A stretch of 64,000 nucleotides of DNA from Escherichia coli 042 (GTDB taxonomy: Bacteria > Pseudomonadota > Gammaproteobacteria > Enterobacterales > Enterobacteriaceae), in NCBI RefSeq assembly GCF_000027125.1, contig NC_017626.1. One strand, 5' to 3'. Made by a program: the position numbers and the translations under genes. Positions within the stretch are counted from its first letter, which is position 1; each line of letters begins with the position of its first letter. This document shows, piece by piece, positions 5,937 through 63,306 of the stretch. The notes beneath the pieces were generated by a model. The model was not told the DNA's origin and searched no databases. It was given only the letters and a program-made list of their open reading frames with translations.

Positions 5937-6467
5937 GAATCATTGACTCGCTGTAAAAAATTATGCATATATTATATATGATTGTCATGTCATATCCTGC
6001 AATTCCTCTTGTATCACTTCATGATTTTATATTTTATTAATTAACGATTTTATTTTGTATTAGCTGAATGGATTCAGTCCTATAGAGTTATATATTTATT
6101 AATAAGACGATTCTTATATTTTGATACCTAATAAGAGTTACCACTTTTACCGGCTGTATATTAAATGTATTTCTCTTGCTTTTGTTTATATTTTGAGTTG
6201 ATTTGAGTTCCTGGATACATATAATGCGCAGGTATTAGAGACTGGGGGGGAATGTAATGATAAAGTTAAGAGTGTTAACTTAAAATAAGTTTTCAGTAGT
6301 AACTTGCTATTTTATTACCCTCTGAACTACATACTCAGATATGTGGTTGCCAATGCTATGCAAAATTTTTGAATTTTTATATGCGATGAACAGTAACCGG
6401 AATGGCATTTAATGCGTTGCTGTTTATGCAATCTTGGTTTTATTTGGATGTATTGCTGGAGATTGTG

Positions 6468-27324: not shown

Positions 27325-27339
27325 TGGCACACCCCTTGC
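27325..27339 (+). promoter_or_regulatory. sigma-54 promoter (-24/-12) of prpBCDE
   Basis: TGGCAC-acccc-TTGC (GG-N10-GC) 48 bp upstream of the prpB ATG, downstream of the divergent prpR. Confidence 0.8.
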
Positions 27340-58416: not shown

Positions 58417-58454
58417 AACACTGGAGAATAAAATTTATCCGGTGAATGTGGTCG

Positions 58455-58502
58455 GAAAACAAAGAGGAAAGGGGGGGGCTAATCGGCAGGGAAGGCCCCC
58501 CC
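58455..58502 (-). terminator. rho-independent terminator of yaiO
   Basis: on the reverse strand a G7 / C8 stem (ccggggggg...cccccccc) is followed by tttcctctttgtttt; 23 bp downstream of the yaiO stop. Confidence 0.6.
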
Positions 58503-58524
58503 GGATAGCGGGCGGCAGAAGGAA

Positions 58525-59298
58525 TCAGAATTTCCAGGTCAGATGGGCTGCAAGTTGCAGACCGTTATAATCATCGGTTGGGGTGTCGTACCACACTTTA
58601 CCTGCCGTCAGCCCGAGATTAAGTTGCTCAGTCAGCGGTTGAATACGTTGCAGACTGACGCTCTTCATGCTGCCGTAGCGTGTTTCTGGCGTCCAGTCAT
58701 AGGTGTAAGCACCTGTTCCGCGGCTTAGCCATAGTTGCGTATAACCAGTGCCGCGCGGGTCATTCAGACGCACGGAAATCATATTGCTGTAACTACCACC
58801 TGCATCGCTGGAGTCATAATGGGTATAGCGATAGCTGGTGATCACCGGGCCAGTATAGAGGGATACGCCGCCTTGCCAGGCATCGACTTCGACATCATCG
58901 TAATATTTAGTGTAGCGATAACCGGTCGTGAAAAGCGTTTTTGGCAACAGTGCCAGGTTAATATCCTGACGAAAATCCTGGCGGGCAAAGACCGGCGTAT
59001 TATCCGCAAAGGCAATACCCGTTCGGGTTGTCAGCCAGTTATTCCATTTATACCAGACCGCACCCTGACCGCGAGTGGCATTGAAATGTTCAGTTTCATA
59101 ATCACGACGCCCCTGGGAAAGATTAAAAAGCAGCGTTGCGTTTTCAACTTTCGCCACCAGTTCAGCATACGCTAAATTACGGTTGCCATGATCGCCAGAA
59201 TAATCGGTAAAATCGTAGCCCGCGGTAATGGAAGTTAACCCGGCATAAGCGGGCAATGTGCTAAAAATTGCTGCCGCTAATAACGTCCGTTTTATCAT
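58525..59298 (-). CDS. yaiO: outer-membrane beta-barrel protein
   Basis: 257-aa ORF with signal peptide MIKRTLLAAAIFSTLPAYA and C-terminal ...HLTWKF. Confidence 0.88.
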   Translation of the reverse strand: MIKRTLLAAAIFSTLPAYAGLTSITAGYDFTDYSGDHGNRNLAYAELVAKVENATLLFNLSQGRRDYETEHFNATRGQGAVWYKWNNWLTTRTGIAFADNTPVFARQDFRQDINLALLPKTLFTTGYRYTKYYDDVEVDAWQGGVSLYTGPVITSYRYTHYDSSDAGGSYSNMISVRLNDPRGTGYTQLWLSRGTGAYTYDWTPETRYGSMKSVSLQRIQPLTEQLNLGLTAGKVWYDTPTDDYNGLQLAAHLTWKF

Positions 59299-59299
59299 T

Positions 59300-60010
59300 T
59301 TAATCTCCTGTACGGATAAGTTCTTGTCGGAGTGAATAAGTTCCGGTAGGTAAATTACGTTCTACAATCACGCGCGGGCCAAGTTGCGTGTTCGGGGAAA
59401 TAATTCGCCCAGGCAAAATAATAACTTGTACACCAAGGCGTGAACGCTGCCCGATATAACAACCTAATTTATCGCATTCGGTAGCGATAATTCCCTCTGG
59501 AGTTCGAACAGATACGGGCTGTTGATCCAGACGATGATTACTGGTACGTACTTGTGCGCCCAAATATGTCTGGTTTGCAACTACCGAGTCGGCGATAAAG
59601 CATTGCGGACCAATCGTTGCTTCCGCTTCAATAACCGCATTTTTAATTTCGGTGGCAAAACCAATTTTTACGCCATTGCTGATTATTGTGCCAGGACGAA
59701 TAAACGCATAATTACCTATCAGGCAGTTTGCGCCAATCACTACCGGACCCTGAATAACGGCACCGTGACAAATACGGGTATTCGCGCCGATAACAACTTC
59801 ACCTGCAGTTTCATCAATAATTACCTGGTCTGCAATCTGAATATTTTTCTCTTTAACATTAAGCTTCAGAAAGTTTTTCAGTTCCTGTGACAGAAGGTTG
59901 GGAATAAGCGGTTGACGCTTCCACCAGTGCGGAATAGCGGGTGGGTTTGTCGCGCTGAGGTTCGCGTCCAGTAAAAAAGGCAATAAGTCCATAAATAATC
60001 CAGATGGCAT
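59300..60010 (-). CDS. yaiX: hexapeptide-repeat (LbH) acyltransferase, uninterrupted; start codon uncertain
   Basis: 236-aa ORF with repeated [LIV]G-x-x-x-x-I hexapeptide motifs; the N-terminal ~50 codons overlap the yaiP 3' end in another frame; stop lies 1 bp from the yaiO start. Confidence 0.65.
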   Translation of the reverse strand: MPSGLFMDLLPFLLDANLSATNPPAIPHWWKRQPLIPNLLSQELKNFLKLNVKEKNIQIADQVIIDETAGEVVIGANTRICHGAVIQGPVVIGANCLIGNYAFIRPGTIISNGVKIGFATEIKNAVIEAEATIGPQCFIADSVVANQTYLGAQVRTSNHRLDQQPVSVRTPEGIIATECDKLGCYIGQRSRLGVQVIILPGRIISPNTQLGPRVIVERNLPTGTYSLRQELIRTGD

Positions 60011-61055
60011 AAGCTAATAATACATACACAACGGAAAGCGGTGCTAAAGGCACCAACAACCAGCAACGATGAAACCAGGCGCTAAAAGCACCAATAACAC
60101 AAACTACGCCGACCCAGATAAGCGGAAACATTGCCAACACCACACCATGCGGCCCGGTGGTAATGAATTCATTAAACCAGGTAGTGAGATAAATCCCAAC
60201 GCCATAAAGCACAACCAACAGCATAGGAAATATACTGAAGATACCGAAGCGGCTAAATAAAAGTCTTTTATGCAGGCGCATACAGACCGCGTAGCCCACA
60301 ATCCAACGCCGCCAGCGACGCCACTCCTCACGCGGGCTGTTGCATTCCTGTGGGTATACGATGCAGCGATTCGCCTGCCGAATACGGTAGCCGTTTGCCA
60401 CCAATGTCCAGGTGAGATCAAGGTCTTCGACTTTAGTACGATCCGAGAAACCGAACTTACGCAATACATCAGTACGGAACATCCCGCAGGCACCGCTGAT
60501 AATAAACGGTGCGCCGCCCACGAGCTGCTGTAGCGTGCGCTTCATAACAATCATCGGCAACTTTACGGTCGCGCGGATGTGTGGTAACAGACCCGCGCCT
60601 TTCAACGCAGTAGAGGGAATGCCGCCTACGGCATCGGCACCGCGCTCAATTTCTGCCAGCATATAGCCCATTCCGTCTTGATCGGGCGGAACATAGGTGT
60701 CGGCATCACTTAAAAAAACCTGGTCGCAGGTGGCGTAATTGAGGCCATTCATCAGCGCACCACCTTTACCGGTATTTTTTTGCGTGACGGCAACAAAGCG
60801 GTCGCCCCATTTGCGTTTGACTTCCTCCATGACCGATTCGGTATTGTCCGTGGAGCCGTCGTTTACGCAAATTACCCGGCAAAAATAAGGGTTACGCAGC
60901 AGATTATCCAGTGACTGTGCCAGACACGGGCCTTCGTTATAAGCAGGTATAATGGCGTCAATACAGCCTTTCTTTTGACTGGGTTTACGTTTTAGCGTAC
61001 TTAAAAACCATAGCAACATTGCTATGGACATACAGATAAATATCCAGGTTTTCAT
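59859..61055 (-). CDS. yaiP: family-2 glycosyltransferase with C-terminal transmembrane region
   Basis: 398-aa ORF; GT-A features (IIPAYNE, DGSTDNT, DAD, VEDLDLTW, ...REEWRRW) followed by several hydrophobic helices. Confidence 0.85.
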   Translation of the reverse strand: MKTWIFICMSIAMLLWFLSTLKRKPSQKKGCIDAIIPAYNEGPCLAQSLDNLLRNPYFCRVICVNDGSTDNTESVMEEVKRKWGDRFVAVTQKNTGKGGALMNGLNYATCDQVFLSDADTYVPPDQDGMGYMLAEIERGADAVGGIPSTALKGAGLLPHIRATVKLPMIVMKRTLQQLVGGAPFIISGACGMFRTDVLRKFGFSDRTKVEDLDLTWTLVANGYRIRQANRCIVYPQECNSPREEWRRWRRWIVGYAVCMRLHKRLLFSRFGIFSIFPMLLVVLYGVGIYLTTWFNEFITTGPHGVVLAMFPLIWVGVVCVIGAFSAWFHRCWLLVPLAPLSVVYVLLAYAIWIIYGLIAFFTGREPQRDKPTRYSALVEASTAYSQPSVTGTEKLSEA

Positions 61056-61064
61056 GCAATTTGC

Positions 61065-61736
61065 TCAAAGAATCATTTTATGAATTACAAAGCCTTCACC
61101 CAGATCGCTATTGACCTGTTGCCCGCGAAATTGTGCAACTGCACGCAGGCGATCCGGGCGCATATAATCACGATGGCCCTGGCTCTTATGCTGTTTTAAT
61201 GCAGCCAGTTTAATGGTGAAATATTCTTCTTCCACGGATTCAAAAACCTGTGGCATAAATGAAAGCCAGGTACTTGGCGTTTCATAGCCGAGAATTTGCG
61301 GAATAGCGCGACAGGCAACCATTGAGGCTTGATAGACTGCAAGATGATCCTGATGGCGGTCAGCATCATGCATGGTGTATACACGAATGATTTCTACATC
61401 AGACGGAATTTGTTTTTTAAGGACATCTTCCAGAGCGGAAATCATATCATTAAGTTGTAAATGAGTACGGGTGTCAGCAAAATTAAAATGAATAGTTTGT
61501 TGACACCCCAAAATGTTTAATGCTTCGAGTGATTCTTGATGTCGATTAATTATTTCACTCACGCCGGAATTACCCGATGTCATCACTACCGCTGCAATAT
61601 AGAACCCTTTTTTTGCAAGACGAGCGAGCGACGCGCCACAGCCCAATTCTATATCGTCAGGATGTGCGCCAATAGCAAGGATACCCTTTCTTTTATTTGC
61701 CGAAGAAAGGATGGCTGAATCTAAAACCTTATCCAC
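61065..61736 (-). CDS. yaiS: PIG-L/LmbE-family N-acetylglucosaminyl deacetylase
   Basis: 223-aa ORF with GTG start; conserved AHPDDIELG motif near the N-terminus; 9 bp upstream of yaiP. Confidence 0.8.
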   Translation of the reverse strand: MDKVLDSAILSSANKRKGILAIGAHPDDIELGCGASLARLAKKGFYIAAVVMTSGNSGVSEIINRHQESLEALNILGCQQTIHFNFADTRTHLQLNDMISALEDVLKKQIPSDVEIIRVYTMHDADRHQDHLAVYQASMVACRAIPQILGYETPSTWLSFMPQVFESVEEEYFTIKLAALKQHKSQGHRDYMRPDRLRAVAQFRGQQVNSDLGEGFVIHKMIL

Positions 61737-62343
61737 TTAATGACACTCCATTTTATTTATTATACTACAAGCACAACGATGCCCACAGAGACGTAATCTC
61801 TGGCGCAGACAGATGCTAATATTTAAGTGTTAAAAATTGCTGATAGCTGAAAAATAAGGGGCTTTCAGGTACGTGGATACGACTGCGTAATCTTTTATGT
61901 AGTTCATATGTTAAGTGTTTGTGTGTTTGGTTTGTATAGTTATTTTGTTTTATATATTGTATTTAGATGTGATTTAGTTTGTCAATTAATTACATATTAA
62001 AAATATGTTCTATGCACGAATATGGATTATATACATTATGTGAATATATTATGTGGTTGATTGAGAATGATACAGTTATATATGCAATGTGAATATAATG
62101 GTTTCATTATATGTATTGCTGTTAATAAAATAAAAGACATTATAATCTGCTTGTTTATGCATTAATAAAATGAAGTGCAGTAACTTACTGAATTGTCAGA
62201 GTGGGTGTAATTGCATATTTAATCTTTCCTTTGCCGCTTTTTTGCTAAGAATAAAATCATCTGTGCGATAACGACTAATTCTTTTAATGAATGTTTTTAT
62301 TCCTGAATACTGCTCCTATAACAAGACAGGGGAGCAGACAATC

Positions 62344-63306
62344 ATGGCAATTTCATCGCGTAACACACTTCTTGCCGCACTGGCATTCATCGCTTTTCAG
62401 GCACAGGCGGTGAACGTCACCGTGGCCTATCAAACCTCCGCTGAACCGGCGAAAGTGGCTCAGGCTGATAACACCTTTGCTAAAGAGAGCGGGGCGACGG
62501 TGGACTGGCGTAAGTTTGACAGCGGAGCCAGCATCGTGCGGGCGCTGGCTTCAGGCGATGTCCAAATCGGTAACCTCGGTTCCAGCCCATTAGCGGTGGC
62601 AGCCAGCCAACAGGTGCCGATTGAAGTCTTCTTACTGGCGTCAAAACTGGGTAACTCCGAAGCGCTGGTGGTAAAGAAAACTATCAGCAAACCGGAAGAT
62701 CTGATTGGCAAACGCATCGCCGTACCGTTTATCTCCACCACCCATTACAGCCTGCTGGCGGCGCTGAAACACTGGGGTATAAAACCCGGACAAGTGGAGA
62801 TAGTGAACCTGCAGCCACCCGCGATTATCGCCGCATGGCAACGGGGAGACATTGATGGTGCTTATGTCTGGGCACCGGCGGTTAACGCCCTGGAAAAAGA
62901 CGGCAAGGTGCTGACCGATTCTGAACAGGTCGGGCAGTGGGGCGCGCCGACGCTGGATGTTTGGGTAGTGCGCAAAGATTTTGCCGAGAAACATCCTGAG
63001 GTAGTGAAAGCGTTCGCTAAAAGCGCCATCGATGCTCAGCAACCGTACATTGCTAACCCAGACGCGTGGCTGAAACAGCCGGAAAACATCAGCAAGCTGG
63101 CGCGTTTAAGCGGCGTGCCGGAAGGTGACGTGCCGGGGCTGGTGAAGGGGAATACCTATCTGACGCCGCAGCAACAAACGGCAGAACTGACCGGACCGGT
63201 GAACAAAGCAATTATCGACACCGCGCAGTTTTTGAAAGAGCAGGGCAAAGTCCCCGCCGTGGCGAATGATTACAGCCAGTACGTTACCTCGCGCTTCGTA
63301 CAATAA
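62344..63306 (+). CDS. tauA: taurine ABC transporter periplasmic binding protein
   Basis: ORF 62287..63306; start set at ATG 62344 (MAISSRNTLLAALAFIAFQAQA signal peptide, 320 aa). Confidence 0.92.
   Translation: MAISSRNTLLAALAFIAFQAQAVNVTVAYQTSAEPAKVAQADNTFAKESGATVDWRKFDSGASIVRALASGDVQIGNLGSSPLAVAASQQVPIEVFLLASKLGNSEALVVKKTISKPEDLIGKRIAVPFISTTHYSLLAALKHWGIKPGQVEIVNLQPPAIIAAWQRGDIDGAYVWAPAVNALEKDGKVLTDSEQVGQWGAPTLDVWVVRKDFAEKHPEVVKAFAKSAIDAQQPYIANPDAWLKQPENISKLARLSGVPEGDVPGLVKGNTYLTPQQQTAELTGPVNKAIIDTAQFLKEQGKVPAVANDYSQYVTSRFVQ

Follow-up and report, generated by a model that had tools for sequence, protein, structure and literature searches.

The spacer that separates the divergent yaiS and tauA genes of Escherichia coli 042 is probably composed of two regulatory modules with different histories: an H-NS-silenced control region that belongs to the yai genes, and a tauA promoter that is self-contained. 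The first module (61737 to ~62208, ~470 bp) would be the upstream control region of the horizontally mobile yaiS-yaiP-yaiX-yaiO genes, in which a near-consensus sigma-70 promoter, P2, and a proximal TATAAT, P1, are embedded in DNA of 23-30% GC. H-NS would nucleate and polymerise on this AT-rich, TpA-rich ~470 bp owing to its composition, would extend into yaiS, and would occlude P2, P1 and the spurious promoter-like sites, leaving the acquired yaiSPXO cassette silent (a xenogeneic silencing of a promoter island). Rho-dependent termination at the C-rich, G-poor early leader may stop those transcripts that escape. The second module (62209-62343, ~135 bp) would be an ordinary LysR-type, Cbl-activated tauABCD promoter. 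Positions throughout are those of the window, by which we mean the whole stretch of 64,000 nucleotides that was analysed, and the features are collected in Table 1.

Because yaiS starts with a GTG at 61736 on the minus strand and tauA with an ATG at 62344 on the plus strand, the interval 61737-62343 is a divergent intergenic region. The initial annotation had described it as a gap of about 600 bp, rich in A+T and free of open reading frames, and this description stands. The GC content is 0.300 over 607 bp, against 0.525 for the 64-kb window; among 607-bp windows the spacer is the GC minimum of the 64 kb (0.09% of windows are equally low), and it contains no ORF that reaches 60 aa, its longest internal ORFs being 30-37 aa. 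Within the spacer, 61891-62190 is the lowest-GC stretch of 300 bp in the window, with a GC content of 0.233 (A97 C19 G51 T134). The gene order, frmR-yaiO-yaiX-yaiP-(ykiC)-yaiS followed divergently by tauABCD-hemB, is also the one that RefSeq gives for a strain of 100% identity and for a K-12 derivative, and in the sampled genomes RefSeq places no feature inside the spacer, save slightly longer yaiS CDS rows and one IS1 insertion. As for repeats, the spacer holds a 22-nt imperfect direct repeat (62027/62076), and its inverted repeats are short and at chance level.

Table 1. Features of the yaiS-tauA spacer and the adjoining cassette (window positions)
Feature	Position	Strand	Remarks
yaiS-tauA divergent spacer	61737..62343		607 bp, GC 0.30, RefSeq-unannotated
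Variable cassette of ~3.8 kb: yaiO, yaiX, yaiP, ykiC, yaiS and ~470 bp of spacer	58443..62208		From junction alignments
AT-rich core, counterpart of K-12 promoter island 383994_309	61891..62190		GC 0.233; K-12 coordinates mapped by alignment
Proximal yaiS promoter candidate P1, perfect TATAAT	61759..61764	-	~22 nt upstream of GTG, then a GGAG Shine-Dalgarno
Palindrome CAGAGA-N5-TCTCTG	61786..61802		Upstream of P1; stem invariant in 5 alleles, no covariation
Predicted long yaiS leader	61737..61949	-	~213 nt; first ~55 nt C/A-rich and nearly G-free
Distal yaiS promoter candidate P2, TTGACA-18-TACAAT	61956..61985	-	11/12 consensus matches; promoter scan, K-12 SELEX and conservation
Counterpart of K-12 'constitutive' promoter TTGAGA-16-TACAAT	62061..62088	+	-10 is TGCAAT here
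tauA promoter module	62209..62343	+	~135 bp; 12-taxa alignment, homologous across Enterobacteriaceae

The distribution of the yai genes is of particular importance, as it assigns the AT-rich tract to the cassette rather than to tau. The variable cassette is flanked by the promoters of frmR and tauA. In alignments its left junction falls near 58443, just beyond the retained frmR promoter and operator, and its right junction at ~62208, up to which the sequence is unrelated to the cassette-free form. The spacer is carried by 4238 of 5426 complete E. coli genomes, and in at least 594 E. coli genomes frmR stands directly beside tauA across 305 bp, without yai genes; frmR also adjoins tauA, with the cassette absent, in E. 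albertii and in Escherichia sp. E1V33. Among 80 species representatives with a close TauA, yaiOXPS together with an upstream GC of 0.30-0.31 were found only in E. coli and E. whittamii, and the remaining TauA species (Citrobacter, Klebsiella, Enterobacter and others) have an upstream GC of 0.40-0.62 and no yai genes. The cassette itself occurs in other settings: it adjoins tauA across a 670-bp spacer (GC 0.307) in E. fergusonii, it adjoins hemB in Citrobacter, with no tau and with 512-518 bp upstream at GC 0.30, and in C. braakii it lies elsewhere, behind a gap of 1329 bp that is AT-rich over its final ~330 bp. Each of these upstream regions (512-1329 bp) contains a 200-bp GC minimum of 0.205-0.22. 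Since every setting of the cassette keeps an AT-rich upstream region, the tract goes with the cassette and not with tau. No sequence homology was detected between the Citrobacter and E. coli upstream regions, which have composition and length in common, so that the statement that the tract travels with the cassette is one about composition and length. The Pfam domains of yaiS-yaiP-yaiX-yaiO are a PIG-L deacetylase, a GT2 glycosyltransferase, a hexapeptide acetyltransferase and the YaiO outer-membrane barrel, and taken together they look like those of a synthase-dependent exopolysaccharide system.

That the spacer is a site of H-NS binding, as the initial annotation supposed from the letters, is correct and already known from K-12. 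The K-12 yaiS(-)/tauA(+) spacer contains promoter island 383994_309 (309 bp), among the 78 listed by Panyukov and Ozoline in 2013 (PMC3661553, Table 1); the island was H-NS-bound in every ChIP-chip study compiled there (Grainger, Kahramanoglou and Oshima), and its adjoining genes were predicted to be foreign by three methods. Aligned to the window, the island maps to 61890-62189 and coincides with the GC minimum at 61891-62190. The K-12 spacer also holds an H-NS SELEX site and an RpoD-holoenzyme genomic-SELEX site (PMC3946193). Inside K-12 yaiS, a predicted FNR site is covered by H-NS and is bound by FNR only in an hns/stpA double mutant (PMC3688515, supplements); in the published overlap list for the site inside yaiS, as distinct from the spacer, H-NS is the sole name. 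These binding data come from the K-12 allele. The window allele is 86% identical to it and equally AT-rich, and H-NS presumably occupies the spacer of E. coli 042 as well.

The structural premise of the initial annotation, namely phased A/T tracts, has to be corrected to TpA-rich, uncurved DNA. A/T tracts of 4 nt or more number 24 in the spacer against 25.5 ± 2.7 in dinucleotide shuffles, the power at a periodicity of 10-11.5 bp is 0.92 against 2.16 ± 0.99 (93% of shuffles are as high or higher), and the AA/TT periodicity of the spacer is unremarkable too. Curvature was predicted with a wedge model, of which only the relative comparison is meaningful; the spacer mean of 0.142 equals the window mean, and ~49% of windows of 607 bp are as curved or more so. 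The profile stays flat over the AT-rich core (at most 0.28), and its sole local maximum within the spacer, 0.43 at 62239, falls on the T6 tract of the tauA promoter. Intrinsically curved DNA with helically phased A-tracts is rejected by tract count, periodicity and curvature alike. TpA steps, of which there are 74 in the spacer against 25.9 per 607 bp elsewhere in the window, point the other way, and this richness in TpA suggests that the DNA is flexible rather than A-tract-curved.

Counts of binding and promoter motifs lead to a similar emphasis on composition. Per 607 bp, -10-like hexamers number 22 in the spacer and 3.1 on average in the other tiles, and promoter-like pairs 13 and 3.0; the spacer counts of both, and those of TpA, the H-NS 10-mer and IHF, are 3-7-fold over the rest of the window, and the same counts equal those in mono- and dinucleotide shuffles of the spacer. 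Since shuffled DNA yields as many, the core has no mark of a designed binding site other than its composition, and the promoter-island character and H-NS affinity of the spacer are consequences of its 70-77% A+T. A stricter promoter scan of the spacer gave 1 site against 3.7 expected. At up to 2 mismatches the H-NS 10-mer TCGATAAATT has 1 match in the spacer against 1.6 in shuffles, which is uninformative. For IHF, which had been named beside H-NS as a likely ligand, the spacer offers no particular target: the consensus WATCAANNNNTTR has no exact match in it, and the one-mismatch count of 3 is at the level of shuffles (2.2 ± 1.6). A Fis-like pattern occurs 10 times in the spacer against 5.1 ± 2.4 in shuffles (p ~0.03, one among eight tests).

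The tau side of the spacer can be followed across a much wider range of bacteria. Over 12 taxa the blocks TTTTTTnCTAAnAA (62238-62251), TAATT (62276-62280) and AATACTGC (62306-62313) are invariant, and a Shine-Dalgarno GGGGAG lies 3' of AATACTGC. Compared with the K-12 upstream region, 62216-62343 is 97.7% identical, with 100% in the bins 62265-62314, an identity that marks it as the Cbl/CysB-dependent tauA promoter; according to a secondary source (PMC3680503), Cbl acts as the activator and CysB as a repressor of tauABCD. The module is found without the AT-rich tract in 594 E. coli genomes and in E. albertii, Citrobacter, Klebsiella and Enterobacter.

The initial annotation went further and proposed that the spacer couples its two promoters, in that a single H-NS and IHF nucleoprotein complex over the whole of it would tie sulfate starvation (through Cbl/CysB) to the silencing of yaiSPXO. 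We consider this unlikely. Although only ~20-60 bp separate the end of the H-NS-bound core from the upstream limit of the tau module, and H-NS filaments spread and can silence both of two divergent promoters (a general argument made in PMC3946193), the spacer has no IHF consensus, A-tract phasing or curvature on which such a complex would be built. Taxa and strains without any AT-rich tract have conserved the tau module, and the tract accompanies the cassette where tau is absent, which argues against a joint element even though the tau haplotype of cassette-bearing strains is distinct and more AT-rich. Our literature search found no published effect of hns on tau, nor any yaiS or tauA expression data in an hns mutant. 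With a few tens of bp between the end of the H-NS tract and the tau module, coupling keeps a small chance of being real; as far as the sequence and its relatives can tell, it would not be needed to explain the spacer, and the comparative data do not suggest it.

The junction of the two modules brought out a second property of the tau promoter. From 62306 to 62343 the window is 100% identical to cassette-free E. coli, and there is a sharp break at -38: over 62209-62305 (-135 to -39) the two are ~51-57% identical (MAFFT 51%, pairwise 57%). In the same interval, identity among the alleles that carry the cassette (window, K-12, E. whittamii and E. fergusonii) is 77-98%; the version of cassette-free E. 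coli shares 93% with E. albertii and 69% with Enterobacter cloacae, and the two E. coli versions are thus further apart than cassette-free E. coli is from Enterobacter. The GC content of the tau promoter is 0.28-0.29 in cassette-bearing and 0.35 in cassette-free strains. There are, then, two very different tauABCD promoter haplotypes within E. coli, linked to the presence of the cassette, and the cassette and the foreign-looking version of the tau promoter are inherited together. This pattern is consistent with acquisition by a recombination event that had one end inside the tau promoter. It is conceivable, if doubtful, that the two versions are functionally distinct regulatory haplotypes of tauABCD and represent a horizontal rewiring of the promoter. 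If this were true, H-NS spreading or altered Cbl/CysB sites, for example, might give cassette-bearing strains a tighter or differently tuned response to sulfur starvation, and the K-12 tau promoter, which is used as the model for Cbl, would be an atypical version.

On the yai side, the window carries a minority allele: 17 genomes are at least 99% identical to its spacer and 766 are 95-99% identical (783 at 95% or more), while for 3251 genomes the identity is no more than 80-90%. Compared with K-12, the window shows an identity of 87.6% in yaiS, 86.4% in the spacer, 81.6% in the core and 95.5% in tauA, and the whole segment from yaiS to the spacer therefore has to be regarded as occurring in deeply diverged alleles. 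Along the spacer, 50-bp bins range from 63-78% up to 92-100% identity, and a 9-bp indel separates E. coli alleles in the core. The conserved blocks are the yaiS-proximal 80 bp (TATAAT, GGAG and the palindrome), 61915-62015 and the tau promoter.

The second of these blocks contains P2. Our promoter scan found TTGACA-18-TACAAT at 61985..61956 (-) independently of its naming as the yaiS promoter in K-12, which came from RpoD-holoenzyme SELEX (PMC3946193). P2 is identical across 5 divergent alleles, and E. fergusonii has the same two hexamers amid flanking DNA that is ~69% identical or unalignable. The block 61915-62015, which spans this distal promoter together with the initial ~35 nt of the predicted transcript, is 92-94% identical between the window and K-12, against 63-78% in the neighbouring 50-bp bins. 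That the hexamers and the early leader have been kept amid diverged E. fergusonii DNA argues for selection on a real promoter at P2, from which transcription would start near 61949 and produce a leader of ~213 nt. The P1 TATAAT is invariant in the 5 alleles, and at 61764..61759 it coincides with a K-12 RpoS-holoenzyme SELEX peak at 383868, 28 bp upstream of the yaiS start (PMC5493296). Consensus, SELEX and conservation together make P1 and P2 candidate yaiS promoters. The palindrome upstream of P1 may be either a possible operator or a leader hairpin.

Two further promoters have been ascribed to this DNA. RegulonDB lists a sigma-54 promoter for yaiS; 61737-62343 contains no TGGCAC-N5-TTGC element, and the sole candidate is intragenic in yaiS (window 61624-61638, 2 mismatches; K-12 L001 5888-5902, 1 mismatch). 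The plus-strand 'constitutive' promoter of K-12, TTGAGA-16-TACAAT, is a SELEX prediction (PMC3946193, Table 1), and its -10 counterpart in the window, TGCAAT, has lost the key A at position 2 of TACAAT.

It could be argued that the AT-rich tract is functionless filler, an old insertion scar under AT-biased mutation, and that H-NS binds it incidentally. The hypervariability of the core (63-78% in some 50-bp bins between E. coli alleles, together with the 9-bp indel) and the equality of all motif counts with composition-matched shuffles are in keeping with such a scar, as is the IS1 found inside the spacer in one strain without obvious consequence. We nevertheless regard this as distinctly unlikely, given that E. 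coli and E. fergusonii have both retained P2 and the initial ~55 nt of the leader, that a long AT-rich upstream region is kept in every genomic context of the cassette, and that RNAP holoenzyme binds the spacer in vitro.

The early part of the predicted yaiS leader is also unusual in its bases. Over the first 78 nt of the leader the C/G ratio is 3.2, which ranks among the highest 0.17% of windows, and the minus strand of 61894-61987 has the highest C:G ratio in the 64 kb; E. fergusonii has largely retained the C/A-rich early leader as far as a conserved AUG (61909). Since the early leader is C-rich and G-poor, a Rho-loading site in it is a reasonable, though unproven, suggestion, and Rho may act there on transcripts that escape silencing. 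The conserved AUG opens a 25-codon uORF whose start and length are kept in 4 of 5 alleles, and the predicted leader contains two small conserved hairpins. A structured leader RNA or riboswitch is unsupported (MFE z -0.60 against shuffles; alifold covariation term +0.36), with 1 of 40 pairs in the leader fold showing any two-sided change across alleles. The RfaH ops element is absent from the yaiS leader, and a terminator-like hairpin at 61870-61889 is not in a conserved register between alleles. It is very improbable that the spacer hides an unannotated gene, whether for a small protein, for an sRNA or for an RNA that regulates in cis from within the long yaiS leader: besides the conservation of the early leader, what speaks for one are the minus-strand uORF, whose peptide is not conserved among alleles, and a plus-strand hydrophobic ORF of 20 codons (GTG, 61915-61977) kept in 5 alleles, which is unsupported as a small protein, having no Shine-Dalgarno, 3 synonymous against 3-4 non-synonymous changes and a frameshift in E. 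fergusonii, while the leader fold is no better than shuffles and shows no covariation, an Rfam search of the spacer gave no match at E <= 1, and PGAP annotates nothing in the K-12 spacer though it does annotate the nearby small protein YkiC.

We therefore return to the spacer as a yai control region joined to a tau promoter. So read, it would be an example of the rule that acquired cassettes bring with them AT-rich, H-NS-silenced control regions. Its H-NS target was already catalogued in K-12, and we detected no further element in the spacer.

The closest known counterpart of the yai part is K-12 promoter island 383994_309, with which the core shares its locus and its position in the spacer, its richness in A+T, its dense promoter-like sites and its predicted-foreign neighbours. 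It differs in that the window core is 81.6% identical, is without the 9-bp insertion, and has TGCAAT for the plus-strand -10 TACAAT. By the definition of the Ozoline group, an island is at least 300 bp long and abnormally dense in promoter-like sites or predicted starts on both strands; judged by proxy hexamer and pair counts instead of PlatProm, the spacer has such a density, which equals that of composition-matched shuffles. The link of islands to horizontally acquired genes is seen here in the presence/absence polymorphism of the cassette.

Xenogeneic silencing by H-NS of acquired AT-rich DNA operates at the regulatory regions of bgl, proU, the LEE and the SPIs. The yai region resembles these systems in having an AT-rich control region at the edge of a variable cassette, a strong promoter within H-NS-bound DNA and, at K-12 yaiS, the exclusion of FNR by H-NS. 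Unlike them, the coding DNA of the cassette is merely mildly AT-rich (GC 0.47), and for this reason the region of H-NS nucleation would be essentially the spacer. We know of no anti-silencer for yaiSPXO.

On the tau side, the counterpart is the Cbl/CysB-activated tauABCD promoter of K-12, which has reportedly been characterised experimentally by van der Ploeg and colleagues (in 1997, J Bacteriol 179:7671), with further CysB sites said to reach out to about -220; Cbl and CysB footprints on the tauA promoter are reported to come from the same work. The likeness lies in the 97.7% identity and in the T-tract, TAATT and AATACTGC common to the 12 taxa, and in scope it covers only ~135 of the 607 bp. 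Finally, Oren and colleagues are said to have described (in PNAS, in 2014) horizontal regulatory transfer, in which promoter regions are replaced between strains. The two tau haplotypes are like this in that versions of one operon's promoter have diverged beyond the species background and are linked to adjacent gene content, but the swap at tau does not stand alone, being tied to whether a neighbouring cassette was gained or lost.

The tauABCD promoter occurs in two forms inside E. coli, one in strains that bear the variable yaiS-yaiP-yaiX-yaiO (yaiSPXO) cassette and the other in strains that lack it. When window positions 62209-62305 were compared with L003 5904-6000 and with the comparison loci L011 and L087, the segment from -135 to -39, counted from the tauA ATG, was only ~51-57% identical between cassette-bearing and cassette-free E. 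coli, and the tauA upstream DNA from -38 on showed no difference between the two. The cassette-linked form of the promoter is also present in E. whittamii and E. fergusonii. Gene content near hemB-tau is itself a hotspot of variation. In one E. coli species representative (L005 2143-6730), the DNA 5' of tauA holds, in place of frmR, three genes that code for a response regulator of the GerE type, a histidine kinase with a MASE1 domain and a transporter of the MFS class; in Citrobacter (L090 9420-12642), the same trio flanks a yaiSPXO cassette that occupies the place expected for tauABCD.

The AT-rich spacer between yaiS and tauA is interrupted by IS1 in the clinical strain EJN001 (n=1). The AT-rich core of the spacer carries a 22-nt imperfect direct repeat (TTATATACATTATGTGAATATA / TTATATATGCAATGTGAATATA), the copies of which are 82% identical and are both recognisable in K-12. 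On the minus strand, positions 61894-61987 have the highest C:G ratio of the entire 64 kb with both strands considered (17:1, 78-nt windows). This C-rich stretch spans the distal yaiS promoter and the early leader, and could possibly serve as a Rho-loading region. Elsewhere in the window, the betT-ehaA intergenic DNA includes a stretch with a GC content of 0.273, which ranks second for AT-richness among 300-bp stretches and is probably another H-NS-type region.

Features of the window and of the comparison loci
Feature	Position	Strand	Remarks
AT-rich 300 bp	5941-6240		betT-ehaA intergenic, 5' of autotransporter adhesin gene ehaA
Direct-repeat copies in AT-rich core	62027-62048 and 62076-62097		49 bp apart
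IS1 in yaiS-tauA spacer	L086 1916-2613		strain EJN001
Sigma-54-like element inside yaiS	61624-61638	minus	TGGCGCGTCGCTCGC
K-12 counterpart of this element	L001 5888-5902		TGGCGCATCGCTTGC

The annotation of yaiS differs between strains, and inconsistently so. In the window, yaiS (61065-61736, minus strand) is a full-length ORF of 223 aa, as against 185 aa in the K-12 annotation, and its product matches the database proteins P0001 and P0002 at every residue; in the strain with 100% identity to the window, PGAP calls yaiS a partial pseudogene.

The sole perfect match to the sigma-54 consensus in the window, TGGCACACCCCTTGC, lies at 27325-27339 on the plus strand and, by map position alone, may be the prpBCDE promoter. 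A further sigma-54-like element is found within the yaiS coding region, ~100 nt in, with a -12 element that is weaker in the window allele than in K-12. This intragenic element is probably the reason that RegulonDB includes yaiS among sigma-54 promoters (PMC3118216).
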